Translations under genes and position numbers: made by a program | Origin: Candidatus Pelagisphaera sp. | GTDB taxonomy: Bacteria > Verrucomicrobiota > Verrucomicrobiia > Opitutales > Opitutaceae | DNA: 24,000 nt | Direction: 5' to 3' | NCBI GenBank assembly: GCA_965655705.1 | Contig: CBFHHM010000008.1 | Coordinates: 77,175-101,174 of the forward strand | Shown: positions 1,339-23,926 of the stretch, in pieces | How positions within the stretch are numbered: the stretch's first letter is position 1 | How the letters are laid out: each line of letters begins with the position of its first letter | The notes under the pieces: model-generated | Told to the model about the DNA's origin: nothing | Databases searched by the model: none | What the model saw: only the letters and a program-made list of their open reading frames with translations

Positions 1339-1367
1339 ATTCATTCGTATCCAGTTTCTCGTTGCTT

Positions 1368-6807: not shown

Positions 6808-6808
6808 T

Positions 6809-7711: not shown

Positions 7712-7764
7712 CGGTTTGCGATTGGACTACGTGTTTCCGTTAGCATTTTAGAAGGAAAAGCAAG

Positions 7765-8970
7765 GTGTACAGATCCAAGGTAATCGCTGGAATAGAAATC
7801 GGAACGAGCAAGGTGGCGGTCTTGCTAGGAGAAATCGTCGAAGGGAAGAGTCTTAATATTATCGGCCTTGGGCAGAGTTCTTCAAAAGGCGTGCTCAAGG
7901 GGGATATCGTCGATTTTCACGCGGCAAGCGATTGCGCTCACGCGGCTATTCTTGCTGCGGAAGAGCAGGCGGGTGTAAAGATAGACGGTGTCTATTTGGC
8001 GGTTAGCGGAAGCGATGTGGAAGGTTTTGCGAGCGAGGCTTCGGTAAACGTCACTTCGGCAGATCGACGCGTTTCGAGCGAGGACATTGAGCAAGTCTCA
8101 AACCTGGCCAAGGGACGGGATCTACCTGAAGAGCGCGCGGTTATTCACCACTTGCGTCGTCCCTACCGGCTCGATGGGCGCACCGTTGAGAATCCTCTGA
8201 ATTTGGAAGGGGATCGACTGGAAGCGAGTTATTGGACGGCTCACGGGAATGCTCGCAAGATTGGGGACGCGATTCATATTATCAATGGGTTTAACTTGCA
8301 CGTCGACGATGTGATCCTTTCGGCCCTGGCGGCGGGTTCGGTTGTGGCGACGGAAGAAGAAAAGCAAAGCGGCTGTCTGGTTATCGATATTGGGCGAGGC
8401 GCTACCGACTACGCTGCGTATCAAGGTGGGAAGTGCGTCGTTGCCGGCAGTTTCCCGCTGGGCGGCGACCATATTTCGAACGATTTGAGTATTGGCCTGA
8501 GGATGCGACTCAAGCAGGCGGAGAGTCTCAAACGGCGCTACGGATCGGCTATTGTCGAGCACCGCGACAAGAGCGAAAAAGTTTGGCTCAACAACGATTT
8601 CGAAATTGGCGATAGGCCAATCCCGCTTTGGAGTATCGAGAAGACGATCGAGCTGCGGATGACCGAGATCTTCGAAGTCGTATCCAAGAAGCTTGGAGCC
8701 TATGGCAGGTCGGATCGATTGGGAGGTGGAGTGATCCTTTGCGGTGGCGGATCCAATCTGAGGAATATCGAGTCCTGTTGCGAAAACGTATTCGGGGCTC
8801 AAGCCCGACTTGGGGACAATGGAACGATGGCGACTGGAGATCTTCGCGAGTCGCAATACAGCGTGGCCTTGGGGTTGCTGCGATATGGACTTCAATACCA
8901 GAGTTCTCGCGAGGAATCGGAGTCCCAAGAGGCAGGATTTATCGGCCGCTTGAAAGGACTGTTTCGCTAG
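7765..8970 (+). CDS. ftsA: Cell-division protein FtsA (actin-like)
   Basis: GTG start. Actin-fold motifs are AGIEIGTSKV (phosphate 1), VIDIGRGATDYAAY (phosphate 2) and ILCGGGSNLRNI (adenosine). The C-terminal segment GFIGRLKGLFR looks like an amphipathic membrane-targeting helix. Lies directly upstream of ftsZ. Confidence 0.92.
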   Translation: MYRSKVIAGIEIGTSKVAVLLGEIVEGKSLNIIGLGQSSSKGVLKGDIVDFHAASDCAHAAILAAEEQAGVKIDGVYLAVSGSDVEGFASEASVNVTSADRRVSSEDIEQVSNLAKGRDLPEERAVIHHLRRPYRLDGRTVENPLNLEGDRLEASYWTAHGNARKIGDAIHIINGFNLHVDDVILSALAAGSVVATEEEKQSGCLVIDIGRGATDYAAYQGGKCVVAGSFPLGGDHISNDLSIGLRMRLKQAESLKRRYGSAIVEHRDKSEKVWLNNDFEIGDRPIPLWSIEKTIELRMTEIFEVVSKKLGAYGRSDRLGGGVILCGGGSNLRNIESCCENVFGAQARLGDNGTMATGDLRESQYSVALGLLRYGLQYQSSREESESQEAGFIGRLKGLFR

Positions 8971-8987
8971 TCGAATAGAGGGCGATC

Positions 8988-10208
8988 ATGAACGAGGACA
9001 CGGACATGGAAGAGATTCGAATGAAAGTGATTGGCGTGGGCGGAGCGGGAACCAACATGGTGGATCGGCTCATGCTTTCAAATCCGGAAGGCTTGAATCT
9101 AACGGCCCTGAATACCGATCAGCAAGCTCTGGCCAGTTCGCCTATTCTGGAAAAGCACTGTATTGGAAAGACGATTACTCGTAGCCTTGGCGCTAGCGGC
9201 GATCCAGCGGTCGGACGAGAAGCGGCGCTGGCGGATAAGGATTTGCTGAAAAGTCTGGTCGACGGGGTCGACTTGCTTTTCATAACGGCGGGACTAGGAG
9301 GGGGCACGGGTACAGGCGTGGCTCCCGTCTTGGCTGATTTGGCCGCTCAGAAAGGAGCGACCGTTATCGTATTCGTAACGATGCCCTTCACGATCGAACG
9401 GGCCGCGAGAGCGGATGTCGCGAAGAACGGTTTGGAAAAGCTACGCGAAGTTTCAAACGCGGTTATTCCTTTGCCCAACGATTTGCTGATTCAGGAGTCG
9501 GAACCGGATGCGTCCTTGCTCGATGCCTTCTCGAAGGCGGACGAATGGATTGAAAAGGCGATCAAGTCCATTTGGACGATGATGAACCGGACCGGTCTCA
9601 TTAATCTGGACTTTTCGCAGTTGCAGCAAGTGTTTGCCAAACGGGCTGGAAAGACCTTGTTTGGGCTGGGCGAGGGATCAGGCGAAGGGGCTCCGGACGA
9701 GGCGATAGAGAAACTGAAGCTGTGTCCGTTGCTGCATACGCCTGAATTCTCTAAAAAGGCCGATCAGCTCCTCGTCAACCTCGTGGGTGGGGCAAGTCTG
9801 GGAATGAGCGAGACCCAGCGTATCATGGACAGCATTACGGATGCCTTCGGGAAGGATGCAAATGTAGTAATGGGCGCGGTGATAGACGAATCGATGGGGG
9901 ATCGCGTGGAAATTTGCGTAATTGGAACGAGCGATATTAGCGACATTTCCATCTTTCGAGGCCGGAAGCGAACCAAGCGGATTCCTACGACGGAAGAATT
10001 TGCAGAGCCGGAGAAGAAAGAGGTGGCGGAGCCTGGTCGCAAATCGAAGAAGGCGCGTTCGAAGAGCGCAAAGGCCGAGCAACACGAATTTTCCTTCAGC
10101 GAGGGCGAGCCGAGAGGGGAATTCGAAAATACGGTTGGCATCATTTTCGAGGGTCAGGATTTGGATACTCCGACTTACCTGAGAAAAGGCGTTCGCATAC
10201 CGATCTAG
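8988..10208 (+). CDS. ftsZ: Cell-division GTPase FtsZ
   Basis: Motifs: VIGVGGAGTNMV, tubulin signature AGLGGGTGTG, and T7-loop NLDFSQL. A basic disordered linker precedes the conserved C-terminal peptide DLDTPTYLRKG. The first glycine-rich motif reads GGAG rather than the more usual bacterial GGGG. Confidence 0.97.
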   Translation: MNEDTDMEEIRMKVIGVGGAGTNMVDRLMLSNPEGLNLTALNTDQQALASSPILEKHCIGKTITRSLGASGDPAVGREAALADKDLLKSLVDGVDLLFITAGLGGGTGTGVAPVLADLAAQKGATVIVFVTMPFTIERAARADVAKNGLEKLREVSNAVIPLPNDLLIQESEPDASLLDAFSKADEWIEKAIKSIWTMMNRTGLINLDFSQLQQVFAKRAGKTLFGLGEGSGEGAPDEAIEKLKLCPLLHTPEFSKKADQLLVNLVGGASLGMSETQRIMDSITDAFGKDANVVMGAVIDESMGDRVEICVIGTSDISDISIFRGRKRTKRIPTTEEFAEPEKKEVAEPGRKSKKARSKSAKAEQHEFSFSEGEPRGEFENTVGIIFEGQDLDTPTYLRKGVRIPI

Positions 10209-11675: not shown

Positions 11676-14246
11676 ATGAAACGGACTTTGCTTCTGATCT
11701 ATGGAGGGTTGTTGATTGTCTCGGCAAGTTGGAAGGAGTGGAATCCGCGTTTGCCCCCCGCTCTAGAGGGTCAGGCTAGCGTCGCAGTGACGATTGCATC
11801 GGACGAAGAAGCGATCGATATACGGTATTGGGATACGAAAAGGGAAGGGCTGGACGAGCGACCGGCGCTCGTTCTCCTGCATGGGAGTCCCATGGCCTCG
11901 GAATATTTCGATCCGCTTTTAGAGAGCTTGGGAGAGGACTTTCGGTTGATCGTCCCAGATCTCCCGGGGTTCGGCCGGTCTCGAAAACGTATCGACGACT
12001 ATTCTATCGACTCGCACGCTCGGTATTTGCGTTCCTTCCTGGACGCCGCGCAGGTAGAAGAGTATCACTTGCTTGGCTACAGCATGGGAGGGGGCGTTGC
12101 GTTGGCGTATACGCGGTTCGAAGCGGTGGACCCACGTTCTTTGACGCTTGTTTCATCGATTGGCCTGCAGGAATTCGAGCTGCTTGGCGACTACACTCTC
12201 AATCATGCGCTGCACGCGGCTCAGCTATTCGTCTTCTGGTCCTTGGAGTGGCTAACGCCGCACTTCGGATTATTGGATGGGGCAATACTGAACTACCGCT
12301 ATGCTCGGAACTTCTACGATACGGATCAGCGTCCGTTGAGGGACGCCTTGCTCGATTGGGGCGAGCCTGCCCTGATCGTCCACGGCGAACGCGATGGATT
12401 GGTTCCCTTTCAAGCAGCCCAAGCTCATCTCAAGGCGATGCCGCATGCCCAGTTCAAGGCCTACAAAGAAGCGGGGCATTTGCTTTCCTATCGGGAATCC
12501 GATCGGGTTGCGGAAGATATCAAACGATTCGTCTGGAGCGTGGAGACTGGAGAGGCGGCGCGGAGAAGTCCGATGCAAGAGGTGGCCCCGGAAGCCTTGC
12601 CGCGAATGCAGCGAAGTCACATGTTTATGGGAGCGCTCTTAGGCGTGGCCACGTTCGTAAGCGAGGACTTGGCCTGTATTGGGGGTGGTCTCTTGGCGAC
12701 TAAAGGAGCGACTCCGCTGTGGGTAGCCGTGACTGGATGCCTCTTGGGGATTTTTATCGGCGATTTCGCGATTTATCTTATGGGTCGTTTCCTGGGGAGG
12801 TCCGTGTTGGGGCTTCCTGTATTGAATCGAATTCTGTCGCCTGCTCGAGTGGATCGCTGCGCTCGATGGCTGGATGAGAAGGGACTCGTCTGGATTGTAT
12901 CTACGCGTTTCATACCAGGTACGCGGGCTCCGACTTACTTCGTTGCCGGCATGGTCAAGGCGGGACCGATGCGATTCGCCATGGCGTTGCTCGCTGGAGC
13001 GATTCTATGGACTCCTTTGCTTGTGGGGCTTTCCTATTGGTTGGGAGGCGCGTTTCTGAGCTTTTTCGAGGAAAGGGAGGGTTGGGCGTTGCTGGGATTG
13101 CTAGTGGTCTCGCTGGGATTGCTGACGCTCGCCCGGTTGTCGGTCGGCCTATTGAGCTGGCAGGGTAGAAGGCTCTTGTATTCCCGTTTCAAACGGTTGG
13201 CGAGATGGGAGTATTGGCCGATGTGGGTCTTTTATCCGCCCATTCTAATGTACGTATTTTGGCAAATGGTGAAACGGCGTTCAGCGACCTCGTTGACATG
13301 CGTCAATCCATGTATGCCAGCGAGCGGCTTGGTTTATGAATCGAAAAGCGAGATCCTGGCCCATTTAGAGCGTTTCGAAGCGCCAATCGGCCGATTCGCA
13401 TTGATCCCTTTGCGATGGGAAAGGGAGCGAAAGGGCGCGGCGCTGGGCTCATTCATGAAGCGAAACAATTTGAAGTTCCCGGTCGTTCTCAAGCCGGATG
13501 CGGGACAGAGAGGGCAGGGAGTTGACATTGTCCATTCGGAGCAGGAGGCCATGGCGTTTTTCGATTCGCAGCTGGAATCGACGGTTGCCCAAGAATATCT
13601 CCCCGGTAACGAGTACGGCATTTTCTACTACCGACTTCCAGGCCATGGAAAAGGCGAGATCCTTTCCGTTACGGACAAGAGACTTATCGAGGTCGTCGGA
13701 GATGGAGCGTCGCGTTTGGAACGCTTGATTCTCGCTGATGAGCGAGCGGTCGGAATGGCTCGTTTCTTTCTGGAAGCCCACCGGGATTCGTTGGATAGGA
13801 TTCTGGGGGATGGCGAACGCTATCGGCTTACCCAGCTGGGTACTCATTGCCGTGGGGCGCTCTTTCTGGATGGGGGTCACTTGCGGACACCAGAGTTGGA
13901 AGCCGCTGTGGACGAGATGAGTCGAGACGTGGAGGGATTCTATTTCGGACGCTACGATATTCGGGCGCCTAGCGAAGCGGATCTGAAGGCGGGTCGCAAT
14001 CTAAGGATTATCGAACTCAATGGATTGACCTCCGAGTCAACTCACATGTATGACCCGAAACATAGTCTTTTCTACGCTTACAAGGCCTTGTTTCGGCAAT
14101 TCGAAATCGCCTTTGAAATAGCCGACATAAATCGCGCCGCAGGGATAGAGGCCGACCGTTTCAGGTCATTGCTTCGACTGGCGCATTGCTATTGGAAAGG
14201 AATGCCGTCTGGACGAGATGGAAGCGAATCGCCAGCGCAGCGTTAG
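11676..14246 (+). CDS. Tri-domain membrane protein: alpha/beta-hydrolase + DedA/VTT (SNARE-associated) membrane domain + ATP-grasp ligase
   Basis: N-terminal anchor MKRTLLLIYGGLLIVSA. The hydrolase (~11840-12550) has LVLLHGSPMAS, nucleophile elbow GYSMGG, HGERDGLVP and EAGHLL. The DedA/VTT part (~12590-13120) has FVSEDLACIGGGLLA, GDFAIYLMGRFLGR and STRFIPGTRAPTYFVAGM, followed by further TM helices. The ATP-grasp (~13360-14200) has FPVVLKPDAGQRGQGV, EYLPGNEYGIFYY and FGRYDIRAPS...IIELNGLTSESTHMYDP. Confidence 0.8.
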   Translation: MKRTLLLIYGGLLIVSASWKEWNPRLPPALEGQASVAVTIASDEEAIDIRYWDTKREGLDERPALVLLHGSPMASEYFDPLLESLGEDFRLIVPDLPGFGRSRKRIDDYSIDSHARYLRSFLDAAQVEEYHLLGYSMGGGVALAYTRFEAVDPRSLTLVSSIGLQEFELLGDYTLNHALHAAQLFVFWSLEWLTPHFGLLDGAILNYRYARNFYDTDQRPLRDALLDWGEPALIVHGERDGLVPFQAAQAHLKAMPHAQFKAYKEAGHLLSYRESDRVAEDIKRFVWSVETGEAARRSPMQEVAPEALPRMQRSHMFMGALLGVATFVSEDLACIGGGLLATKGATPLWVAVTGCLLGIFIGDFAIYLMGRFLGRSVLGLPVLNRILSPARVDRCARWLDEKGLVWIVSTRFIPGTRAPTYFVAGMVKAGPMRFAMALLAGAILWTPLLVGLSYWLGGAFLSFFEEREGWALLGLLVVSLGLLTLARLSVGLLSWQGRRLLYSRFKRLARWEYWPMWVFYPPILMYVFWQMVKRRSATSLTCVNPCMPASGLVYESKSEILAHLERFEAPIGRFALIPLRWERERKGAALGSFMKRNNLKFPVVLKPDAGQRGQGVDIVHSEQEAMAFFDSQLESTVAQEYLPGNEYGIFYYRLPGHGKGEILSVTDKRLIEVVGDGASRLERLILADERAVGMARFFLEAHRDSLDRILGDGERYRLTQLGTHCRGALFLDGGHLRTPELEAAVDEMSRDVEGFYFGRYDIRAPSEADLKAGRNLRIIELNGLTSESTHMYDPKHSLFYAYKALFRQFEIAFEIADINRAAGIEADRFRSLLRLAHCYWKGMPSGRDGSESPAQR

Positions 14247-15016
14247 ATACTGGAGTCTTCGGCAATGGGGGCTCGTTCCGCGGTACTGCCTTTGATGCCT
14301 CGCTTTATGAATTGAACGACTTCATCGTCTTCCTTCAGGCGAATGCTTTGATTGCTGCCCGTATCTTCGCCGACGTAGTCCGCAACCGAGGCGGCCATAA
14401 TAGGCAAGTATTCGCGCAGGTCGTCGTTTTCGTCGTAGTTGCGTACGCGTACGCTCCAGATTTCCTGAGCGGGAATGTCGCTTGAGATGGAATCGAGCAT
14501 ATTCTCCTTAGCGGTCAATTCCATGTACTTTTCGTTCACGACCACAGAAACAAGACGTTCCTCGTAGCCTACCAATTCGCGGCTTCTACGTCCGGGAACC
14601 CTCACGGTGTAAGTAATGATTCGACCCGTTTTCGGGTCTCGCTGCTGGACCGTTTGGATCCGGTCCGGCTCTTGGATAGTTGCGAATACCGGTTCTTCGA
14701 CTACTTTGAATTCCCGTCGAGGCGGTTCCATGCCGTAGTCGACCTCGATTACCATGTCGGCCTCGGTGACCTCGATCGCCTCGTACATGCCCTTGCTTGA
14801 CAGGGCCGTTTTGATATACTCGACGGTTTCCTTGTAGCGGAGATCGTTGACGTCCTGCTCGGGATCGCGTGGCACGATCACGTAGGTTTCCGCATCCTCA
14901 ATCGTTGGGTTCTTGATCGCGTCGACCTGCATTTCGTAGGTCGTATTGCATCCCGCTAGGAGAAATCCTAGCAATGCTCCAACGATCAAAGCAGGATGTT
15001 TTTGGCGGGAGGTCAT
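14243..15016 (-). CDS. Lipoprotein of unknown function
   Basis: Canonical lipoprotein signal MTSRQKHPALIVGALLGFLLAGC, with lipobox LAGC. The mature part is acidic and soluble, with no motif I recognise confidently; a loose DUF4136-like flavour is not asserted. Its 3' end overlaps the convergent 856-aa gene by 4 nt. Confidence 0.7.
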   Translation of the reverse strand: MTSRQKHPALIVGALLGFLLAGCNTTYEMQVDAIKNPTIEDAETYVIVPRDPEQDVNDLRYKETVEYIKTALSSKGMYEAIEVTEADMVIEVDYGMEPPRREFKVVEEPVFATIQEPDRIQTVQQRDPKTGRIITYTVRVPGRRSRELVGYEERLVSVVVNEKYMELTAKENMLDSISSDIPAQEIWSVRVRNYDENDDLREYLPIMAASVADYVGEDTGSNQSIRLKEDDEVVQFIKRGIKGSTAERAPIAEDSSI

Positions 15017-15045: not shown

Positions 15046-15645
15046 TCAGGGAGCGGTGCCGTCACTGGCGTCGATATTGCCTTCCGAACCTTCGAGTTCG
15101 GCGAGCTCCTTTTCCAGTCGTTCGATTTCAGCGAGGGCGTCCTTTTCACGCTCCTCGGCTTCATCCAAGGCCTTTTTCCGATCTATCGCCGCTTGTCGCT
15201 TGGCTTGAAGGACTTTGAGCCGCGCTTCGGCGGTCTCCGCCCGCCCGGACATCTCGTCCAATTCCTCGTTTGAAATGCGAAACCCCTCGGCTATGTCCAA
15301 TTCCTCCTGCAGGTCCGCCTTCTCCTTGTCGATCGCTCGCTTTTGCATGGCGATGGCTTGATTGTAGGCCCGTTGCTGAGCGAGCGTATCCTGACGTTTC
15401 CGCTCCTTGCCTTCCTGGATGGCGCCAATGGTAGCGCCGACAATCGCTCCCGCTGCCCCTGCGGCGGCAATGCCACCCGCATCTTGGCCCGTTACGGCTC
15501 CGCCTATGGCGCCCACGGCAGCGCCCGCCCCGGCTCCTTTAACCGTTTTGGAAGCGGCTGGCCCCGCGCATCCCCAATGAAAGGCGAGCAAGGCAAGGCC
15601 GACTAGCGTGGCAGCTGTCTTTCCGAGTATTTTCGACCGATTCAT
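15046..15645 (-). CDS. Secreted/lipoprotein with glycine-zipper segment and long coiled coil
   Basis: Signal-like N-terminus MNRSKILGKTAATLVGLALLAFHWGC; the Cys could be lipidated, but the lipobox is atypical. A Gly/Ala zipper follows (GAGAGAAVGAIGGAVTGQDAGGIAAAGAAGAIVGATIGAI), then ~110 aa of charged heptad-like helix (EKADLQEELD...LAEIERLEKELAELE). It lies 29 nt upstream of the 14243-15016 gene, so they are probably co-transcribed. Confidence 0.7.
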   Translation of the reverse strand: MNRSKILGKTAATLVGLALLAFHWGCAGPAASKTVKGAGAGAAVGAIGGAVTGQDAGGIAAAGAAGAIVGATIGAIQEGKERKRQDTLAQQRAYNQAIAMQKRAIDKEKADLQEELDIAEGFRISNEELDEMSGRAETAEARLKVLQAKRQAAIDRKKALDEAEEREKDALAEIERLEKELAELEGSEGNIDASDGTAP

Positions 15646-15877: not shown

Positions 15878-16726
15878 ATGAAAAACAAAGGGTTTTATTC
15901 CCGCGACTTCATGGTCCAGTTCCTGGGCCTCTTCGTTTCCATTATCGTCGTCACTGCCGTCTACAAAGGCTATATTTGGCCCACGGCCGACGAGGTGAAG
16001 ATCACCAACGAAATACGAGCCAGCCAAAACCCGGATGGAAGCCACGTTCCGGAGAAGTCGATCGCCTTGCTTCTAGAAAATGCAGAGCAAATGGCCTGTC
16101 TCATTCTTATGATGTGGGCGACGATCATAATCGTGTTCAAATTTCTCAAGCTGAGTGGGGAGCAGGCGATGGCGGACCACGCCTTTCTCAAGACGGCTCG
16201 CGGCGAACGAATCATTCCGGAAGACGCGTTAGCCCACTACAAAGAGGTGGAGAGTCAATTGAGACGCGCCCCGCGGTTGCGCGGGAAGATTCTCCCAGAC
16301 GTTATTCTGGCGGCCCTTCATCGATTCGATGCGACGCGTTCGATCCAGGATGCGGCCCACGCGGTAAGCGAGCGAACGGAAATGGCCTATGAACAGCTCG
16401 AGTCGGACCTGTCTCTGGTCCGCTACATCGCTTGGGCGATTCCGTCCGTAGGATTTATCGGCACCGTGCGCGGCATTAGCGAGGCCCTCGGGCAAGCGGA
16501 TATGGCGATTCAAGGCGACATCAGTGGGGTTACTTCCAGCCTAGGCTTGGCCTTTAATTCGACCTTCATCGCCTTGCTGCTTAGCATCGGGCTCATGTTG
16601 CTGGTGCATCTCTTGCAGTCGCGTCAGGAATCGCTGGTGATCGAGCTTGAGGATCTAGCGACCAAGAAGGTGATCGGCTTAATGAAAACGCCGACCAATG
16701 AAGAATCCAGTATCAGCTTTAGCTAG
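15878..16726 (+). CDS. MotA/TolQ/ExbB-family ion-channel (stator A-type) subunit
   Basis: The C-terminal half carries the family signature: YIAWAIPSVGFIGTVRGISEALGQA, then SSLGLAFNSTFIALLLSIGLMLLVHLL (compare A-P-x-x-G-L-L-G-T-V-x-G and the Thr-containing last TM of ExbB/TolQ). There are two N-terminal TM helices (FMVQFLGLFVSIIVVTAVY and MACLILMMWATIIIVF) and a ~95-aa charged loop before TM3. No SD precedes ATG 15878. Confidence 0.85.
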   Translation: MKNKGFYSRDFMVQFLGLFVSIIVVTAVYKGYIWPTADEVKITNEIRASQNPDGSHVPEKSIALLLENAEQMACLILMMWATIIIVFKFLKLSGEQAMADHAFLKTARGERIIPEDALAHYKEVESQLRRAPRLRGKILPDVILAALHRFDATRSIQDAAHAVSERTEMAYEQLESDLSLVRYIAWAIPSVGFIGTVRGISEALGQADMAIQGDISGVTSSLGLAFNSTFIALLLSIGLMLLVHLLQSRQESLVIELEDLATKKVIGLMKTPTNEESSISFS

Positions 16727-16738
16727 AAACGTTCGTCT

Positions 16739-18202
16739 ATGTCTACTTTGGGAATTGAATTGAGCGATGTGGGCGTCAACGCGGTCTTGATCGACTCGAG
16801 CGGCTCCTCGCAAATCGTTTCGTTGAGCGGGGATGAGGAAGCGATGCCCGCTTGCGCCTACGCTCGGGCGGGCGAACTGTGGTTTGGGCCGGAAGCTCAG
16901 GAAATGGCTTTCGTATACCCACGTCGCACCTGCTCGGAGTTTATTGACGATCTGTCATTCCAGTCCACCAATTTGGATGGCCACTACCGGAAGATAATGT
17001 ATTCGCAATTGGCGTACAGGTTTTTCCAAGAGCTGCTCTCGAAGGTGGAGGAGGAAGCGGGGGCTGTGAGGCAGTGCGTCATTGCGGTTCCGGGCCATTA
17101 CCTCGAGAGGAACGAGCGTTCGGAAGAGCGACTGGGATTGCTGCTGGGTATTCTCGGCGACCTGGGGGTTCCCGTAGCCGGTATCGTCGACATGGCAGCG
17201 GCGGCTCTTTACAGCGAAGGGCTTTGGAATGTGCCGGAGGGAGAACGCGTGTTCCATGTCGATTTGCTCGCCCATGCGACTCATATTTCGGTGTTCCACA
17301 AACGGGGAGGGTTGGAACGCGTCAATTTCACTCGGCTGCCGCAGCACGGATTCAGTAAAATGCTGGAGCGGTTTACGGCGTCGATGTCGAATCGCTTCCT
17401 GGCCGAAACGTCTTTCGACATCACTGAAGATCGGCAAATCGAGCGGGCCTTCCATGCTCAGACGCGTGAGATGCTCTTCAACCTCGGCAAGGTCAACGAA
17501 GCGAACTTGGAAGTTTCGACGCGCGAGAAGTCGCGGCAGATGATGATTTCCAAGGAAATGGCCACGCTAGAGTTGGAGCCGCAAGTAAAGCTGGTGACCC
17601 AGATGATTCTCAGAGCGGTGAACGACTTCGCCAATAGCAGCGACGAGATTCAAATCGCCCTTTCAAGTCGCGCCGCTATGATTCAGGGACTGAAGGAATC
17701 GATCGTATCCCAGGGAATGGGGGAGGTCATGGAATTGCCTCCGGAGAGCGGCGCATTTGGAGTTGCCAATTACGGCAAGGACTGGGAGGTCGTAGATGAC
17801 ATGGGAGAGGCTCGGGTCGAGGTAGGCATTGCTACGGCGGGAATGCTTCAAGCGCCTGAGAAGCCCTCGGCAGTGGCCTCGCTGCGTTTGATTCGAGAAG
17901 GTCGATCGCTCAATCCGACGCACATCGTATGCGATGGCTTGGCCTATCGGCTTTCGGGCGATTCCTTTTTGGTAGGAATCGGCGAAAGCGATCGATTCGA
18001 TTTGGTCGCGGATAGAGAGAGTTCCGGGGAGCCCGTAGGTCTATTTCGATTGAATTTGAGCGAAGATCGGTGGAATATCGAAGCGATGGAAGGAGCGAAG
18101 TTGGGGGAAATCGGAGAGACGGGTTTGAAAGCGGGCGATGCGGTGGAGCTTCGCTTGGTCTCGACCCGCAAGCGACTCGCGCTCGTCCACTGCATCGAAT
18201 AG
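16739..18202 (+). CDS. Hsp70/actin-fold protein with degenerate nucleotide-binding motifs and an FHA-like C-terminal domain
   Basis: By eye it is colinear with the DnaK NBD. Matches (DnaK in brackets): LGIELSDVGVNAVLID (IGIDLGTTNS), MPACAYARAGELWFGPEAQ (TPSIIAY..GETLVGQPAK), CVIAVPGHY (AVITVPAYF), GVPVAGIVDMAAAALY (GLEVKRIINEPTAAALAY), VFHVDLLAHATHISVF (VYDLGGGTFDISI), IQIALSSRAAMIQGL (VILVGGQTRMPMV) and PPESGAFGVANYG (NPDEAVAIGAAVQG). There is no signal peptide. The last ~90 aa (~17920-18199) form a beta-rich region with an FHA-like pattern (FLVGIGESDRFDLV...LKAGDAVELR). Confidence 0.72.
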   Translation: MSTLGIELSDVGVNAVLIDSSGSSQIVSLSGDEEAMPACAYARAGELWFGPEAQEMAFVYPRRTCSEFIDDLSFQSTNLDGHYRKIMYSQLAYRFFQELLSKVEEEAGAVRQCVIAVPGHYLERNERSEERLGLLLGILGDLGVPVAGIVDMAAAALYSEGLWNVPEGERVFHVDLLAHATHISVFHKRGGLERVNFTRLPQHGFSKMLERFTASMSNRFLAETSFDITEDRQIERAFHAQTREMLFNLGKVNEANLEVSTREKSRQMMISKEMATLELEPQVKLVTQMILRAVNDFANSSDEIQIALSSRAAMIQGLKESIVSQGMGEVMELPPESGAFGVANYGKDWEVVDDMGEARVEVGIATAGMLQAPEKPSAVASLRLIREGRSLNPTHIVCDGLAYRLSGDSFLVGIGESDRFDLVADRESSGEPVGLFRLNLSEDRWNIEAMEGAKLGEIGETGLKAGDAVELRLVSTRKRLALVHCIE

Positions 18203-18214
18203 GAGAGCCAAGGC

Positions 18215-19282
18215 ATGAAACGGAAAAAGCGGGATACGGAAATTTTCAGTCTGTCCTTTTTGGACTGCATTTGCTGCGGCTTTGGAGCCGTGCTGCTTTT
18301 GTTCGTGCTCACGGTGGGCAAGAAGTCGGATACGCTGATCGATATCAAAGCGAAGATCGAGCAGGTCATTGGCCAGATGGAGAACGACCTTTCGGATAAG
18401 GACAAGGAGCTGAAAAGCCTACAGCGCTCCTTGACGACCTTGAGAAATACCAACCGCACCTCGGAGGAAGAAATCGTAGTCAAAAAGAAGATGCAGACCG
18501 AGCTCGAAGACGAGTTCGCCCTTTTGCTGGCTCAACTTTCCTCGATGGAGGAGGACTTGGGTAAGCTGTTGGACGACAAGGAAAACATGCCTATGCAAGA
18601 GGAGGAGCCGCCTATTCCGATCGTTAATCCAGTGCGGCGGCAGTACCTGACAGGGTTCGATATCCAGGGAGATAATGTGCTTTTCCTGATCGAGGCTTCG
18701 GGCGGTATGATGGATGACACAACCGAGAAAGCGTCGGCTCGCCTGAGCGATTCCGACGAGGATAAGCGCAATGCGCCGAAATGGCTTCAAGTGAAGAAAG
18801 GCATGCGCTGGCTGATCGCCAACTTGAAGCCGACTTCGCGGTACAAAATAATGCTTTTCAACGAAGAGATTACGACGATCGATACACGCTACGGAACGGA
18901 TTGGATCGATCCGTCCGATCGAGACACCACCAAGGATATCCTCGACCAGTTGGATGATGTGGTGCCGGAGAAAGGGGCCAACCTGGAGAAGGCCTTCTCC
19001 ATGGCGAGCGATCTGCCGGTGGAACCGGACCGCATTGTATTGATTGTAGACGGCTTGCCGACTTTGGCCGATAGCTACTCCACGGGAAGCAACGTCACGG
19101 ACGACCACGACCGCATCAACATGTTTCGCGTGGCCAAGAAAGCGCTGATCGTGCAGGCGCCGGTCAATATTCTGCTTTATCCAATGAAGATGGACCCGGG
19201 CGCTGCCGTTCACTACTGGCGCTTGGCGGACGATCAGGGTGGGGCGATGGTTTGTCCTTCCAGATCCTGGCCGAACACATGA
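18215..19282 (+). CDS. ExbD/TolR-like TM anchor + coiled coil + vWA domain protein, paralogue A (degenerate MIDAS)
   Basis: Basic tip MKRKKRDTE, then TM IFSLSFLDCICCGFGAVLLLFVL with Asp17 (18263-18265). A charged heptad-like helix spans ~18326-18590. The vWA pattern is NVLFLIEASGGMMD (18692-18706, where DxSxS would be), YKIMLFNEE, GANLEKAFSMA, RIVLIVDGLPT, VNILLYP and YWRLADDQGGAMV. Confidence 0.8.
   Translation: MKRKKRDTEIFSLSFLDCICCGFGAVLLLFVLTVGKKSDTLIDIKAKIEQVIGQMENDLSDKDKELKSLQRSLTTLRNTNRTSEEEIVVKKKMQTELEDEFALLLAQLSSMEEDLGKLLDDKENMPMQEEEPPIPIVNPVRRQYLTGFDIQGDNVLFLIEASGGMMDDTTEKASARLSDSDEDKRNAPKWLQVKKGMRWLIANLKPTSRYKIMLFNEEITTIDTRYGTDWIDPSDRDTTKDILDQLDDVVPEKGANLEKAFSMASDLPVEPDRIVLIVDGLPTLADSYSTGSNVTDDHDRINMFRVAKKALIVQAPVNILLYPMKMDPGAAVHYWRLADDQGGAMVCPSRSWPNT
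18245..18325 (+). repeat. Paralogous 81-nt segment (TM anchor of vWA paralogue A)
   Basis: By hand alignment to 19306-19386, 61 of 81 nt and 22 of 27 codons (amino acids) are identical. The rest of the two genes is far more diverged. Confidence 0.8.
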
Positions 19283-20394
19283 GACGCAAGCGTTCCACTC
19301 AAGTTTTCAGCTTGTCCTTTCTGGACGTGATTTGCTGCGGATTCGGAGCGATCATTCTGCTCTTCGTCATCACCATGGGCAAGAAGACCAAGGAGATCAC
19401 GAATTTGCGGATAGCCTTGGAGCGTATCATCCAACAGCGCATGCTGCAGCTCAACGAATATGAAATTCGTACGGAAGAGTTGGCCCTGCTTATTCAGCTC
19501 GAAAGGGACAAGGATAACGAAAAGAAGATCGTGGAGGAGGATTTGGACGCGGTTATCGCGAAGCTCAAAGAGCAGATAAACGATAAGGAGTTCAGCAAAG
19601 ACAAGTTCGTCACCGATATCGAACAGCTGGAAAAGGAGTTGGCGGTGATGCAAACCGATCCTGAGATCGAACAAAAGGTTCTCGAGGTAACCCCGGTCGG
19701 GGTGCCGGTCGAGAGCAATCACATCGCATTCGTAATCGATACGTCAGGCAGTATGCGCGATCCCAATACGCGTTTGGTTTGGGGATACGTAATACAGAAG
19801 TTCGAGGAAACCTTGGATTCCTATCCGGAGGTCAAGGGCATTCAATTGCTCGATGCCAACGGGCGTTTCATTATCGGAAGAGGCATGGGCAGTCGGTGGA
19901 TGCCGGACAATCGCGAGACCCGCGAGTACATGGTGCGAACCTTGCGACTGTATCCCTACGATAGCGAAAGCAATCCTGTACCGGGCATCGCCCAGGCGAT
20001 CCGGCGCTTGGCGGACCCCGGCGACGAGGAAATGGAAATGGGAATCTACGTATTCGGCGATGAGTTTACCGGTCGATCCGAGCCCGTTTTGAATACACTC
20101 GATAAACTCAATCAAGACAATGAGGGCGAGCGCATGGCCCGCATCAATGCGATCGGCTTTCCGAATCTGATTCGCAATACGCTTTCCTTGAGCCAGTCTG
20201 GCTTGAAGTTCGCCAATCTGATGCGCGAGCTGACCTACGAACACGATGGAGCCTTCGTCGCCTTGGAGCGCGAATCGCTGCGCGCTCGGTCCCGCGAAAT
20301 CGAACAACGCTATCCCGCGCCTATTCCCCGGAGAGACCCTCTGGAGCCCTCGATTATCTACGGTCCTCGAGGGGGCGGCATATACGGGCCCTAA
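19279..20394 (+). CDS. ExbD/TolR-like TM anchor + coiled coil + vWA domain protein, paralogue B (intact MIDAS)
   Basis: I place the start at ATG 19279 (ATGA overlap with the upstream stop) because MRRKRSTQVFSLSFLDVICCGFGAIILLFVITMGKK then aligns residue-for-residue with paralogue A; the track's 19252 start adds 9 unaligned residues. The TM Asp16 is at 19324-19326 and the coiled coil spans ~19390-19684. The vWA pattern is HIAFVIDTSGSMRD (DTSGS 19738-19752), SESNPVPGIAQAIRRL, GIYVFGDEFTG, RINAIGFP and LTYEHDGAFVAL. Confidence 0.85.
   Translation: MRRKRSTQVFSLSFLDVICCGFGAIILLFVITMGKKTKEITNLRIALERIIQQRMLQLNEYEIRTEELALLIQLERDKDNEKKIVEEDLDAVIAKLKEQINDKEFSKDKFVTDIEQLEKELAVMQTDPEIEQKVLEVTPVGVPVESNHIAFVIDTSGSMRDPNTRLVWGYVIQKFEETLDSYPEVKGIQLLDANGRFIIGRGMGSRWMPDNRETREYMVRTLRLYPYDSESNPVPGIAQAIRRLADPGDEEMEMGIYVFGDEFTGRSEPVLNTLDKLNQDNEGERMARINAIGFPNLIRNTLSLSQSGLKFANLMRELTYEHDGAFVALERESLRARSREIEQRYPAPIPRRDPLEPSIIYGPRGGGIYGP
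19306..19386 (+). repeat. Paralogous 81-nt segment (TM anchor of vWA paralogue B)
   Basis: Partner of 18245-18325; see that entry. Confidence 0.8.
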
Positions 20395-20567: not shown

Positions 20568-21812
20568 CTATCGTTCGGTGAAGGCGTTCATCTTCGCTCG
20601 CATCAGAGGTTTCAATACATAGTCGAAGACGCTCTTCTTGCCAGTCTTGATGTCGACTTGAGCGACCATTCCGGGAAGGATCTCGAGTTCTTGTTCACTG
20701 GTGCGCAAGGAGCGTTCGCCGGTGCGAACCAAGATGCGATAGTGGCTTTCGCCTTGGTCGTTCATGAACGTGTCGGCGCTGATGCGCTCTACTTCGCCCG
20801 ATAGCCCTCCATAGACGGAGTAGTCGTAGGCGGTCAACTTGACGGTTGCGTCTTGGCCGATTTTGACGAAGGCGATATCCTCCGGGGCGATGTCCGCCTC
20901 GACGAGAAGACTGTCGCCGGTGGGCACGATCTCGAAAAGAGGCGCTCCCGGCTGAAGGATGCCGCCGATCGTTTTGACGTGCAGCTTGTTCACGATTCCC
21001 GAAACGGGAGCTTTGATATCGGTCCGGGCGATCTTGTCTTCGTAGGCGAGCAGCGCTTGTTCCACTTGCTTTAGGCTCGTGCTGTATTCGTTTCGTTGCG
21101 ATACGACTTCGCTCAAATATTCAGAGGACTCCCGTTCCATTTGACCTTCCAAATCGTTGACCATGGCCTCTAGGCGGAGAAGCTCTACGCGGGACACCAC
21201 GCCGGATTCGGCGAGGGGGCGCGACATTTCCAACTCTTGCGTTTTCAGTTCAAGGCTTTTCCCAAGGTGACGTTGACTTGTCTCGATCTGTTCGCGGCGG
21301 GTGTGGAAGAGCAAGGATTCCGCCTCGATTAGATCGGGTCGTTGTTCAGCCAGGACAGCGGGAAAGACAATTTCCGAAGAAGCGCTCAACTCCGCTTCCA
21401 AACGAGAGATCTTTGCCATGAGGTCATTGCGCTCGGCCAGGTTTTCTCGATAGCTGGCTCGGAAAGTCGTGTCGTCGATTTTAGCCAGTCGGCGTCCCTG
21501 CTCTACTCGTTGTCCTTCGCGCACATCGATTCCGGATACGATGCCTCCTTCAAGGCTCTGGACGATTTGCAGACTGCCGGAAGGAATGATCTTGCCTTGC
21601 CCGCGGGTCAGTTCGCTGACCTGCGATTGGTAGGCCCAAAGCAAGCAGGCGACAACCAAGCCCATGATGCTTAGTAGAAGGATGTTCGCGTAGGGCATCT
21701 TCTCCTCGAGAAAGGCGACCTTGCAGTCCGCCACGAAGTCGAGGTCTTCGATTGCGATCGCTTCCCTTTGCGGCCCGGAGACATTTCGTTTGTCTGGCGA
21801 TTCTTGGCTCAT
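20568..21812 (-). CDS. HlyD-family type I secretion periplasmic adaptor (membrane fusion protein)
   Basis: N-terminal TM ILLLSIMGLVVACLLWAY, a long coiled-coil hairpin region, and a lipoyl/barrel region (IKAPVSGIV and FEIVPTGDSLLVEADIAPEDIAFVKIGQDATVKLTAYDY). The family-typical C-terminus is KTGKKSVFDYVLKPL. Its start overlaps the upstream ABC gene's stop by 1 nt (TGATG on the minus strand). Confidence 0.92.
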   Translation of the reverse strand: MSQESPDKRNVSGPQREAIAIEDLDFVADCKVAFLEEKMPYANILLLSIMGLVVACLLWAYQSQVSELTRGQGKIIPSGSLQIVQSLEGGIVSGIDVREGQRVEQGRRLAKIDDTTFRASYRENLAERNDLMAKISRLEAELSASSEIVFPAVLAEQRPDLIEAESLLFHTRREQIETSQRHLGKSLELKTQELEMSRPLAESGVVSRVELLRLEAMVNDLEGQMERESSEYLSEVVSQRNEYSTSLKQVEQALLAYEDKIARTDIKAPVSGIVNKLHVKTIGGILQPGAPLFEIVPTGDSLLVEADIAPEDIAFVKIGQDATVKLTAYDYSVYGGLSGEVERISADTFMNDQGESHYRILVRTGERSLRTSEQELEILPGMVAQVDIKTGKKSVFDYVLKPLMRAKMNAFTER

Positions 21813-23926
21813 CAGTTTCTTCCCGTTCCTCCGGATAGTTGGCGCATGACGTCAGTCTTCGGCCCGTCGGCAGCGATTTTGCCTTGGTCCACCACGATTA
21901 TTCGATCCGCAAGCTTCAGCATCGAAGGTTTGTGGGTAGAAAGGACCAAGGTACGATTACCTTCCTTCGAGTACCGCTCCATATTGGTGATGAAATCGCG
22001 TTCCGCATTGGCGTCCATGGCGCTGGTCGGTTCGTCCATGACGAGCAAGCTCGGCTTAATCAATAGGGCTCGAGCGATGTTAACGGCCTGTCGCTGGCCG
22101 CCAGAGAGCATCTCGCCCCGTTCCCCCACCTGCAAGTCGTAGCCCAAGGGGTGCTTGGAAACGAAGCGCTCGACGCCGGACAGGTTGGATGCCTCGATAA
22201 GCGCGGATTCTTCCATCCAAGGGGCTCCAATCAGGATGTTGGATTTCAAGGAGCCTTGAAAGAGGAGATTGTCCTGGCCGATGTATCCGATTTTACGGCG
22301 CAAGTCGGCCGGATCCATCTGCCGGATGTCGGTATCGTTGACCGTGATCATGCCGCCGGTCGACGGATAGAATCCGAGGATGAGTCGGAGGAGGGTGCTC
22401 TTGCCGGATCCGACGCGACCCAGTATGGCCACTCGTTCTCCGGGTTTGATGGAAAAGGAGGCGTTGATGATGGCGGGGGCGCTTTCCGGCGAGTAGGAAA
22501 AGGTGACATCGTTGAAGGCGATGCGCGGTTCGAAATCGGGCTTGTGTATGTAGTCCTGCCCCTCTTCGCGCTCCTGGGGAAGCTTGATCAAATCGTTGAG
22601 TCCGCTCAGCGATACCAGCGATCCTTGCAGACGGGACAGAAGCGCGGCGACTTGGCCAATTGGAGCCATAGCCCGACCCGTTAGTATGGTGCAGCCAATA
22701 AGGGCGCCCATGCTCATTTCTCCTTGCTGTATCCGAAATACGGAAACGACGATAATGATGACGGACACTATTTGCGTCGTAAATACGGTGAAATTCGAGG
22801 CCAGCGAGGAATAGCGTCGCGAGGTAACTTCGCTCTTAGCCATCTTGCCCAGAGAATCTTCCATTCTCTTTTGGAAGCTGCCGGATGCGGAGAGGCCGCG
22901 GATCGCCTCGAATCCGTTGATGGCTTCCACGAGTATGGCATGCTTCTGGGCGGATGCCCCATGGGCCTTTTCAGCGGCTCGTTTGAGCGGAACATGCATG
23001 AGCGCTCCGAGCGTGAGGATCATTGCGATGGCGGCGCAGGGAATGAAAGCAACCCAGCCCGCGATATAGCCCATGAAAACGATGAACAGGCAAACGAAGG
23101 GAAGATCGATGAGGGTGGTCAGGGACGCCGAGGTAAAGAACTCTCTCAGGCTTTCGTAGCCCTTGACTTGGTTGGCGAAGCTGCCTGACGAGCTGGGCTT
23201 GGCCTGCATCTTGATGCCCATGATGCGTTGGAAGATGAAGCTGGACATGAGCACGTCCGCATTCTTGCCCGCCTTGTCTATGAGCAGACCGCGAAGGGAC
23301 TTGAGAAGGAAATCGAACACGTAGACGATACAGACTCCGCTGGCCAGGACCCACAGGGTGTCGATAGCGTTGTTGGGGATGACTCTATCGTAGACGTTCA
23401 TCACGAAGAGCGAACCCGCGATGGCAAACAAGTTGATGAAGACCGCGGCCAGCATGACGTTGGCGTAGATCTTCTTGTACTTCCAAAGCGTACCCCAAAA
23501 CCAGTTTTTCGCATTGATGCTTTGCGAGCTCGATTCGGAGCGCGTATCGAAGTCGAACTCCGGCTTGACGAAGATCGCCATACCCGTGTAGTCGGCTTCG
23601 ATATCGGAGGTTGGAATTGTGGTCTCCCCGCTGCCGGACTCAGGGACGATAACGCGACATTGGTCGCCCTCGACGCGTTCGACGAGGATGAGGGCTCGAT
23701 TGTCTTCGAGTAAAAGAACGGCGGGCAGCGTGAGGTTGGATATCTTGGCGAGCGGGCGTTTGACGATACGGGAGGAGAATCCTGCGTTGGCCGCCGATCG
23801 AAGAAACAATTTGGGAGTGAGGCGATTGTCGACCAAGGGCATCCCCGCTACGAGCGCTTCCTTGGAAATCGAGCGGTGATGGATTTTGCCCAGCGTGAAG
23901 AGGCATTCGAGCAGGGCATCGTCCAC
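21812..23926 (-). CDS. Type I secretion ABC transporter (permease/ATPase) with N-terminal C39-like domain, LssB/LapB type
   Basis: The N-terminal segment DDALLECLFTLGKIHHRSISKEALVAGMPL resembles the LssB-family C39-like domain. It has a six-TM exporter core, Walker A GRVGSGKST, signature LSGGQRQ, Walker B LLVMDEPTSAMD and H-loop STHK. The track start is GTG 23926, but the same frame has no stop up to position 24000, so the true start may lie outside the window. Confidence 0.9.
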   Translation of the reverse strand: MDDALLECLFTLGKIHHRSISKEALVAGMPLVDNRLTPKLFLRSAANAGFSSRIVKRPLAKISNLTLPAVLLLEDNRALILVERVEGDQCRVIVPESGSGETTIPTSDIEADYTGMAIFVKPEFDFDTRSESSSQSINAKNWFWGTLWKYKKIYANVMLAAVFINLFAIAGSLFVMNVYDRVIPNNAIDTLWVLASGVCIVYVFDFLLKSLRGLLIDKAGKNADVLMSSFIFQRIMGIKMQAKPSSSGSFANQVKGYESLREFFTSASLTTLIDLPFVCLFIVFMGYIAGWVAFIPCAAIAMILTLGALMHVPLKRAAEKAHGASAQKHAILVEAINGFEAIRGLSASGSFQKRMEDSLGKMAKSEVTSRRYSSLASNFTVFTTQIVSVIIIVVSVFRIQQGEMSMGALIGCTILTGRAMAPIGQVAALLSRLQGSLVSLSGLNDLIKLPQEREEGQDYIHKPDFEPRIAFNDVTFSYSPESAPAIINASFSIKPGERVAILGRVGSGKSTLLRLILGFYPSTGGMITVNDTDIRQMDPADLRRKIGYIGQDNLLFQGSLKSNILIGAPWMEESALIEASNLSGVERFVSKHPLGYDLQVGERGEMLSGGQRQAVNIARALLIKPSLLVMDEPTSAMDANAERDFITNMERYSKEGNRTLVLSTHKPSMLKLADRIIVVDQGKIAADGPKTDVMRQLSGGTGRN

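Follow-up and report, generated by a model that had tools for sequence, protein, structure and literature searches.

Ion motors of the 5:2 type, in which a pentameric channel surrounds two plug chains, drive flagella, TonB-dependent uptake, Tol-Pal maintenance, gliding and Zorya defence. In Myxococcus xanthus, the AglR pentamer works with AglQ and AglS, two TolR-like plugs predicted to insert together (PMC11761067). A group of predicted 'transpore-helix vWA' (TPH-vWA) proteins has also been described (Mol Biol Evol 2025, msaf138; PMC12204202): they co-occur tightly with tolQ homologues and without tolR/exbD in Proteobacteria and Verrucomicrobia, they are 'predominantly found in heterologous pairs', and AlphaFold 3 (AF3) models place the Asp residues of the vWA pair within the ring of Thr residues that the TolQ-like pentamer forms (PMC12204202). 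Here we analyse a stretch of 24,000 nt from Candidatus Pelagisphaera sp. (contig CBFHHM010000008.1 of assembly GCA_965655705.1, forward strand, positions 77,175-101,174), called the window throughout, which carries such a pair: two tandem genes, A and B, encoding paralogous proteins with a domain of the von Willebrand factor A (vWA) type, preceded by the gene of a MotA/TolQ/ExbB-like channel protein and a fourth gene lying between channel and pair.

The locus agrees with the TPH-vWA description in having vWA domains tethered by a transmembrane (TM) segment, an Asp-bearing helix, a heterologous pair, a tolQ-like gene and no tolR/exbD; the reference of that paper is a pair from Idiomarina, and the window locus was matched to the description given there. 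As the prediction has been published (PMC12204202), the main idea is not new. The text of that paper contains no reference to the states of the metal ion-dependent adhesion site (MIDAS), to the Cys residues, to heterodimers as such, to an Hsp70-like/FHA gene or to head fusions, nor to accessory lipoprotein, PEGA-FGE or M48 genes, and our literature search found no other paper linking these terms. Added here to the published prediction are the Hsp70-like/FHA partner, the MIDAS decay, the Cys at Asp+4, the fusions of A and B heads, and the accessory gene sets.

The best-supported reading of the locus, and in our judgement a probable one, is that one A and one B chain form a heterodimer serving as the axle of a 5:2 ion-driven motor, with the two vWA heads in the periplasm. 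The A:B pairing is argued from the co-occurrence of both genes in the same order, their translational coupling (ATGA), the equal lengths of their long helices, and two independent fusions of their heads. A preliminary description of the window had already proposed an obligate heterodimer, with AglQ/AglS as its precedent, and this precedent is confirmed (PMC11761067). The observations that bear on the proposal concern architecture, paralogy, fold, conservation patterns, synteny and head fusions, and they were made directly on the sequences, models and loci presented below.

Architecture and conservation of paralogues A and B

The + strand of the window carries four tightly packed open reading frames (ORFs): 15878-16726 (282 aa), 16739-18202 (487 aa), 18215-19282 (355 aa) and 19252-20394. 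The third encodes paralogue A (18215..19282, + strand; 355 aa), made of a basic cytoplasmic tail, an Asp-bearing transpore helix, a long helical stalk, an RQYLTG linker, a vWA head with decayed MIDAS, and an S-W-P end. Paralogue B, encoded by the fourth, has an A-like architecture with a DTSGS vWA head and a Gly-rich C-terminal tail. Its true start is most likely the ATG at 19279 (19279..20394, + strand; 371 aa), rather than the TTG at 19252 chosen by the ORF tool, because this ATG overlaps the A stop codon (ATGA), the orthologue consensus begins MxRRR....FSLSFLD, and the same 4-nt A/B overlap is present in loci L001-L003.

A and B are aligned by BLASTP with 32% identity across 177 aa (E = 5e-23), a span comprising the N-terminal tail, the TM segment, the stalk and the first vWA strand. 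Both have a basic tail (MKRKKRD in A, MRRKRS in B) and one hydrophobic segment, and by the positive-inside rule the N-terminus would be cytoplasmic and the stalk and head periplasmic, which is the topology of TolR, ExbD and MotB. The anchor of A, residues 11-37 (FSLSFLDCICCGFGAVLLLFVLTVGKK; 18245..18325, + strand), holds D17 and C20-C21; the anchor of B (FSLSFLDVICCGFGAIILLFVITMGKK; 19306..19386, + strand) holds D16 and C19-C20. The identity between the two anchors had been counted by hand as 22/27 aa and 61/81 nt, and both counts were reproduced exactly. Of these 27 codons, 12 are the same in both genes, 10 show synonymous differences and 5 show non-synonymous ones. Since 10 of the 22 conserved codons carry synonymous differences, the anchor likeness is indicative of purifying selection, and a recent gene conversion of the anchor is ruled out by the same differences. 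An older gene conversion in Verrucomicrobiota may have occurred, judging from the anchor sequences; the Verrucomicrobiota A anchor is nearer to the B anchor (74%) than to the gammaproteobacterial A anchors (51%).

Conservation was counted on 116 A orthologues and 121 aligned B orthologues, 119 of which cover the anchor columns, and on an alignment of 50 diverse A-type representatives. The anchor Asp is invariant in all three sets (A, 116/116; B, 119/119; diverse A-type, 50/50). In the A orthologues, C21, G22, F23 and G24 are invariant together with D17, and D17, C21 and G24 remain so among the diverse representatives; in B, the residues D, I, C, C, G, F, G and A of the anchor are invariant in all sequences covering them, and this core is also kept in Gammaproteobacteria and Acidobacteriota. 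A conserved Cys-Cys pair following the Asp had been noticed previously: both paralogues of the window do carry the pair, but only its second Cys (Asp+4) is invariant family-wide; outside Verrucomicrobiota, A-type proteins have Ser, Ala or Phe in place of the first. The invariant Cys lies one helical turn from the Asp, on the same face of the helix.

Beyond the anchor, the AlphaFold2 (AF2) models, built on 73-78 orthologues, give an unbroken helix for residues 13-123 of A, which contains its stalk (18326..18583, + strand), and a helix for residues 14-124 of B (stalk 19387..19650, + strand), 111 residues long and equal in length to the helix of A. The three regions differ in how far they have diverged: in the comparison of A with B, identity is 74% for the anchor, against 12% for the stalk and 18% for the vWA part. 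Anchor identity between A and B of the same genome is 74% in Verrucomicrobiota and ~50% elsewhere, and across phyla it is 51% for A orthologues and 71% for B orthologues; stalk identity is 12-21% between A and B of the same genome, and 18% (A) and 17% (B) across phyla; vWA identity is 17-19% between A and B of the same genome, and 33% (A) and 42% (B) across phyla. These values, within genomes compared to across phyla, indicate that the A/B duplication is older than the spread of the cassette.

The C-termini of the two paralogues differ in kind. A-type proteins have a conserved (D/S)-W-P at the end or a few residues from it (19268-19279 in the window), a pattern suggesting that the extreme C-terminus of A serves for docking or recognition. 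B-type tails are variable; those of the window and its nearest relatives are rich in Gly (here GPRGGGIYGP, which is repeated in L004).

The vWA heads and their metal-binding sites

Both heads have the vWA fold. The domain comprises residues 154-340 of A (18674..19234, + strand), as delimited by the AF2 model, Foldseek and a profile alignment to the MIDAS motifs of ITIH4, and residues 148-344 of B (19720..20310, + strand), as delimited by the AF2 model and Foldseek. Mean predicted local distance difference test (pLDDT) values were 82.3 for A and 77.6 for B, with the domain blocks at ~85-93 and a low-confidence linker. The comparison of the models with the PDB by Foldseek matched A and B to vWA domains at E = 1e-8 to 1e-4 with probability 1.00 (TFIIH p44, ITIH1, Rpn10, BatB, CMG2/ANTXR2, alpha2delta subunit, complement C2a and factor B). 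The fold assignment made earlier by eye was thus upheld for both heads, and structure prediction gave no reason to doubt it.

The motif positions given in the preliminary description, namely DTSGS at 19738-19752 in B, EASGG at 18692-18706 in A and G-A-N at residues 254-256 of A, all proved exact. In A, E-A-S-G-G (18692..18706, + strand) is a degenerate first MIDAS motif (E160, S162, G164). Position 160 is E in 90/116 orthologues and R in 26/116, and position 164 is G in 87/116 and S in 29/116; as the Arg found at the first MIDAS position in a fifth of the A orthologues is unable to ligate metal, the site is considered dead in the Opitutales lineage. The G-A-N (18974..18982, + strand) has Ala in the place of the MIDAS Thr: A255 is present in 113/116 A orthologues, in a column aligning with GGTN of ITIH4. 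The MIDAS Asp is kept in D-G-L-P-T (residues 279-283; 19049..19063, + strand), which aligns with TDGDPT of ITIH4, and D279, L281, P282 and T283 are invariant in both the 116 orthologues and the 50 diverse A-type sequences. The profile of diverse A-type sequences aligns with the ITIH4 vWA domain exactly at DxSxS, GGTN and TDG, which fixes the MIDAS columns of A. Three of the five MIDAS ligands are consequently replaced in the window A (D to E, S to G, T to A), a composition that does not correspond to a functional MIDAS.

In B, the first motif, D-T-S-G-S (19738..19752, + strand), belongs to a strictly conserved pattern, D-[TS]-S-G-S-M-R, in which D154, S156, G157, S158, M159 and R160 are invariant in 121/121 orthologues, and DTSGSM is kept in the B-type proteins of Verrucomicrobiota, Gammaproteobacteria and Acidobacteriota. 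The place expected for the MIDAS Thr is occupied by S-E-S-N-P (residues 229-233, before the helix 234-244; 19963..19977, + strand), where S231, N232 and P233 are invariant (orthologue pattern S-x-S-N-P-V-P-G); judging from the model, S231 probably stands in for the Thr. The expected MIDAS Asp would be D261, placed by predicted secondary structure in G-D-E-F at the end of the strand 254-260 (20056..20067, + strand); G260 is present in 120/121 orthologues, and D261 and F263 are invariant. The canonical MIDAS start ascribed to B is exact and invariant, but the second half of the site is non-canonical, with SxS[NS]P for GGT and GDEF for TDG.

The asymmetry between a degenerate and an intact head, on which the preliminary description had built its model, is real in the window and conserved across Opitutales, but it does not extend to the whole family: the MIDAS of A-type proteins is canonical in Gammaproteobacteria and Acidobacteriota (DxS[AS]SM, GGT[SN], TDGLPT). 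Among the 50 diverse A-type representatives, the D...T form prevails and the E...A form belongs to a minority clade. ExSxG consequently fails as a hallmark of A-type proteins, those of Gammaproteobacteria and Acidobacteriota carrying DxSxS. The loss of the MIDAS in A is, to go by these alignments, a secondary, lineage-specific state and not a design principle of the family, and because A-type proteins of other phyla are canonical, a division into one binding head and one structural head could hold only in the Opitutales lineage. That one head lost its metal site in a single lineage offers a natural test of which head is the ligand-binding one.

The channel subunit and the middle protein

The MotA/TolQ/ExbB-like channel subunit (15878..16726, + strand; 282 aa), which presumably forms a pentameric stator ring, matches Pfam MotA_ExbB (PF01618) at 3.6e-14 and 53 bits (cut-off 22.9), and falls far under every cut-off of the NCBIfam TolQ, ExbB, ZorA and MotA models. 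Its T196 (GTVRG) and T229 (NST) align with T145 and T178 of TolQ (TolQR structure, PDB 8odt), and both pore Thr are invariant in the 18 orthologues of three phyla in which they were checked. Three strongly hydrophobic segments and an amphipathic GTV helix (~residues 183-205) suggest a MotA-like topology with four TM helices.

The gene between channel and pair (16739..18202, + strand) encodes a protein of 487 aa with an Hsp70-like nucleotide-binding domain (NBD) of the actin fold and a degenerate C-terminal FHA-like domain. The single-sequence Pfam scan of this product gave no match, and single-sequence scans of A, B and the middle gene with Pfam, NCBIfam and PADLOC gave coiled-coil noise or sub-threshold matches only. 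The profile of 27 middle-gene orthologues matches the nucleotide-binding domains of Hsp70 proteins (Ssb1, 2.3e-5; Hsp70/Hsc70, ~1e-3), and three gammaproteobacterial orthologues (Woeseiaceae and other) match Pfam FHA at 5e-13 in their C-terminal 100 residues. The window protein has no membrane-anchor-like hydrophobic stretch, only one short segment, and is presumably cytoplasmic. In nearly all loci its gene is flanked by the motor gene and A, and on this synteny the Hsp70-like/FHA protein is to be seen as an obligatory fourth component of the cassette.

Distribution of the cassette and fusions of the heads

A genome scan seeded with B motifs gave 445 relatives, from which 80 loci were kept, ~70 of them with enough flanking sequence to be informative; they belong to Verrucomicrobiota, Gammaproteobacteria (Halieaceae, Woeseiaceae, Pseudomonadales) and Acidobacteriota (Vicinamibacteria). 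The order MotA/TolQ-like gene, Hsp70-NBD-like/FHA gene (~430-500 aa), A, B was found in all ~70 informative loci of the three phyla. A check proposed earlier, whether A-type and B-type copies always co-occur, thus gave both genes in the same order in every informative locus and no single-copy locus. The cassette is present in essentially all sampled Opitutales, at a syntenic chromosomal position across genera, and in many marine Gammaproteobacteria and Acidobacteriota; the plasmid search with B found no copy. No tolR/exbD gene was found in the window, and none accompanies the cassette. A and B each have thousands of relatives, nearly all unnamed or annotated as 'VWA domain-containing protein', the closest being from Opitutales (Pelagicoccus, Puniceicoccaceae, Oleiharenicola, Lacunisphaera), and an exhaustive search with the A-type profile gave 314 clusters (50% identity) at E <= 1e-30.

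In two proteins a single polypeptide holds both an A-type and a B-type head. The fusion P0427 (802 aa; L084, 4025-6433; GCA_035526455.1, DATLCJ010000552.1) contains, in this order, a BlaR1-type M56 membrane protease domain (7e-59), an A-type head with RASGS and GGAN (3e-40 to the window A) and, 17 residues past it, a B-type head with DSSGSM (52% identical to the window B, 2e-63). A BlaI-type (Penicillinase_R) repressor is encoded directly upstream, and the place where BlaR1 usually has its extracytoplasmic sensor domain appears to be taken by the head pair. The fusion P0416 (473 aa; L085-L087, 6001-7422) has a signal peptide, a B-type head and an A-type head, in this order, and is a stand-alone secreted protein with intact DxSxS in both heads, encoded in a transposase-rich region with no motor genes nearby. 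It is present on five contigs of up to 5.8 Mb, which rules out an assembly artefact. The existence of fusions in both orders indicates that A and B heads act as one module and, together with the fixed pairing of the genes, supports the A:B pair.

Proposed machine and alternative explanations

In the machine that we propose, A and B, two paralogues, would be bitopic proteins of the inner membrane, each with an ion-binding Asp on a TolR/ExbD/MotB-like helix. One A and one B, side by side in a pentamer of the MotA/TolQ-like protein, would make a 5:2 proton-driven motor, and their stalks would pair as a coiled coil of ~16 nm carrying the A:B heads toward the peptidoglycan and the outer membrane. 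In Opitutales only head B keeps the metal-binding DxSxS site and would hence be the ligand-binding head, with head A as its structural partner; heads A and B of the other phyla both seem competent. The A:B heads probably engage an envelope partner, for which the neighbouring lipoproteins are candidates, and ion flow would pull, rotate or probe that partner. The Hsp70-NBD-like/FHA-like protein probably docks on the motor from the cytoplasmic side, to regulate it or to read it out. We infer the 5:2 assembly, the heterodimer, metal binding, ion coupling, the partner, and the direction of force or information flow from this combination of features.

Several observations weigh against the proposal or limit it. 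Neither A nor B matches Pfam ExbD (PF02472) at E <= 0.1, so that the likeness of their anchors to the TolR and ExbD helices is one of pattern and position only; A and B would act in a TolR/ExbD-like manner in the membrane, yet outside the TolR/ExbD family. TolR, ExbD and MotB are homodimers and, by analogy, A2 and B2 motors may exist. The PDB profile search with B returned spurious RecA-repeat and coiled-coil matches only and no vWA domain, and for this reason the Thr and Asp positions of its MIDAS cannot be fixed by sequence. The window middle protein aligns over the FHA region, but without the typical FHA residues that bind phosphothreonine, the FHA domain having decayed in Verrucomicrobiota; the Gly-rich phosphate-binding loops of Hsp70 are not conserved in the middle-gene family, which makes ATPase activity uncertain and suggests a pseudo-ATPase. 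The BlaR1 fusion P0427 hints at sensing over force transmission. A second, diverged B-type gene (36% identity; FTLSFLDALCCGFGA, DTSGSM) is found in one Opitutales genome beside a hybrid histidine kinase gene (L077, 5953-6993), with no cassette upstream of it; the contig ends ~280 nt past this gene, and the locus is therefore uninformative as a single-copy locus. Finally, the loci were gathered via B-type motifs, so A-only loci may have escaped.

Among the alternative explanations, the one that we hold possible, although doubtful, is that the motor is mainly a trans-envelope sensor, in which a ligand or envelope partner engaged by the A:B heads would alter or stall the ion-driven motion of the axle and the Hsp70-like/FHA protein would read this out in the cytoplasm; it is compatible with the heterodimer and differs in the output. 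In P0427 the A and B heads stand in the sensor place of a BlaR1-type signal-transducing protease, with the BlaI-type gene adjoining; one invariant gene of the cassette encodes a cytoplasmic protein whose FHA domain is of the signalling type; and Zorya is reportedly a precedent for a 5:2 motor used as sensor, the channel protein having a weak match to ZorA. Against this, the cassette has no conserved transcription factor, kinase or effector, its FHA-like domain has degenerated in the Verrucomicrobiota lineage, and the long rigid stalk with lipoprotein, OmpA and M48 neighbours suits a mechanical envelope role equally. It is rather unlikely, in our estimate, that the four-gene core is a distinct two-way mechanosensor, in which a proton-driven motor would turn or load a heterodimeric coiled-coil shaft tipped by an asymmetric pair of vWA heads, and engagement of a ligand on the outer-membrane or peptidoglycan side by the heads and a cytoplasmic signal would be coupled in both directions through the motor and the actin-fold/FHA protein. 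In this picture the A:B pair would have found a second use as the sensor of a BlaR1-type protease, and one head would be a non-binding scaffold in Opitutales. The composition of the axle could also be different, with A2 and B2 homodimers on one MotA-like pentamer making two kinds of motor, as paralogues of TonB or stator subunits share an energiser. The anchors of A and B are nearly identical, so that either could suit the same pore, and the structurally characterised B-type subunits are reportedly all homodimers with the exception of AglQ/AglS (PMC11761067). We nevertheless consider homodimers improbable: all informative loci of three phyla carry both types as a pair in one fixed order, translation of the two genes is coupled, the stalks are only 12-21% identical yet equal in length, each of two independent fusions joins one A head and one B head, and the Opitutales head A lacks MIDAS ligands yet is strongly constrained, which is hard to square with ligand binding by A2.

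Two further explanations we regard as very improbable. A and B could be anchored vWA proteins of the Bat-like or MoxR type, mere neighbours of a TolQ-like gene, and their Foldseek matches do include BatB (3ibs) and a Bacteroides aerotolerance vWA protein (4jdu). No MoxR AAA+ ATPase or DUF58 gene is present in the window or the related loci, however, the Asp within the helix is invariant, the gene order is fixed across three phyla, and the MotA-like protein would be left without any other B-type subunit. The cassette could also be a Zorya-like anti-phage defence system, the MotA-like protein giving weak matches to ZorA models (NCBIfam, 0.007; PADLOC, 2e-4). Against this reading, the other three proteins have weak PADLOC matches (E >= 0.0015) to unrelated coiled-coil/helicase models, or none; there is no nuclease or other effector; the channel protein has just 282 aa; and the chromosomal site is syntenic and near-universal in the sampled Opitutales, with no plasmid copy, unlike a defence island.

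Genes around the cassette

Two genes with lipoprotein-like products lie divergently upstream of the cassette. The nearer (15046..15645, - strand) encodes a Gly-zipper and coiled-coil protein with a lipoprotein-like N-terminus, a candidate envelope partner; it matches NCBIfam YiaD_Gzip_OmpA at 3.8e-6 in its N-terminal part and Pfam Gly-zipper_YMGG weakly, and its position is kept in the Verrucomicrobiota loci. Its counterpart in Woeseiaceae may be the Gly-zipper-OmpA gene found after B (L062, 7128-7853), the two proteins being aligned by hhalign with 89% probability. The second (14243..15016, - strand) encodes a DUF4136-like protein with a lipoprotein-like N-terminus (Pfam DUF4136, 2.3e-4, under the cut-off), and is kept in most Verrucomicrobiota loci having enough upstream sequence. 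Halieaceae have two lipoproteins and an M48 (BepA-like) peptidase after B (L083, 6968-9748), and hhalign of the Verrucomicrobiota DUF4136-like lipoprotein with the two Halieaceae lipoproteins gave only 31% and 11% probability. In Opitutaceae (L001, 12987-13826) an M48 peptidase gene lies ~4 kb downstream, and a TonB_C protein is encoded a few kb downstream.

A gene for a large protein that combines three PEGA domains with an FGE-sulfatase (formylglycine-generating-enzyme-like) domain directly precedes the motor gene in most of the gammaproteobacterial and acidobacteriotal loci with enough upstream sequence (examples are L083, 456-2516, and L062, 68-2365); this PEGA-FGE gene was not found upstream in the Verrucomicrobiota loci. 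The accessory neighbours point to an action at the outer membrane and the peptidoglycan layer, and the lipoprotein, OmpA-like, PEGA-FGE and M48 products are concrete candidates for the partner of the heads.

Other genes of the window were recorded on their own account. The end of a dcw cluster occupies 1362-10208 (FtsW, MurG, MurC-MurB, Ddl, FtsQ, FtsA, FtsZ), and includes an ORF of 742 aa (3650-5878) in which MurC (Mur ligase domains) is fused to MurB (FAD_binding_4 and MurB_C). A cell-division link of the cassette via the adjacent dcw/ftsZ cluster was dropped, this neighbourhood not being conserved in Opitutaceae or in other phyla. An ORF of 856 aa (11676-14246) combines an alpha/beta hydrolase domain with a VTT/DedA membrane domain; the gene is kept upstream of the cassette in the Puniceicoccaceae-like loci L002/L003, where the counterpart adds a weak RimK (ATP-grasp) match. 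Directly downstream, convergent to B (20568-23926, - strand), is a type I secretion pair that is not kept beside the cassette in other genomes; it is made up of an adaptor of the HlyD family (414 aa) and an ABC exporter (704 aa) whose N-terminal domain is C39 peptidase-like.

Comparison with known systems

The vWA/Hsp70/FGS conflict systems (Kaur et al. 2020, eLife) were considered and rejected as relatives of the cassette: MotA and ExbB are unmentioned there, and the architectures differ. With the vWA/MIDAS proteins (integrin I domains, ITIH, CMG2/ANTXR2, BatB) the heads share the fold, but in the window A three of the five ligand positions are occupied by E, G and A.

TolQR, ExbBD and MotAB resemble the cassette in the MotA_ExbB domain, the pair of pore Thr, the Asp helix with its N-terminus inside and the Asp near its cytoplasmic end, and the adjacent genes in an operon. 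They differ in having a homodimeric B subunit with a TolR/ExbD or OmpA-like peptidoglycan-binding domain, and in delivering force to TolA or TonB; the window cassette has two different B subunits, a coiled-coil stalk and vWA heads, and no TolA/TonB-like SHLS helix protein. GldLM and Zorya (ZorAB) are comparable in that a long rigid extension of the motor relays its output far away. GldM, however, is a homodimer of a different fold, and in Zorya the long tail is cytoplasmic and borne by ZorA, with ZorB binding peptidoglycan.

The gliding motor AglRQS shares with the cassette the combination of one TolQ-like channel and two different TolR-like plug proteins (PMC11761067). The FHA domain of GltG has been modelled at the cytoplasmic face of the AglR pentamer (PMC11761067), which parallels the middle gene of the cassette, homology not being claimed; and a vWA/MIDAS adhesin, CglB, is reported at the far end of the machine (PMC11761067; PMC9946355). 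In AglRQS the vWA and FHA domains are on separate proteins (CglB and GltG), and there are no Glt genes at the window locus; the periplasmic domains of AglQ and AglS are small and TolR-like, and neither protein has a stalk or a vWA domain. Compared with these machines, the cassette would represent a further branch of the 5:2 motors, one whose output is a pair of adhesion-type vWA heads built onto the axle itself.

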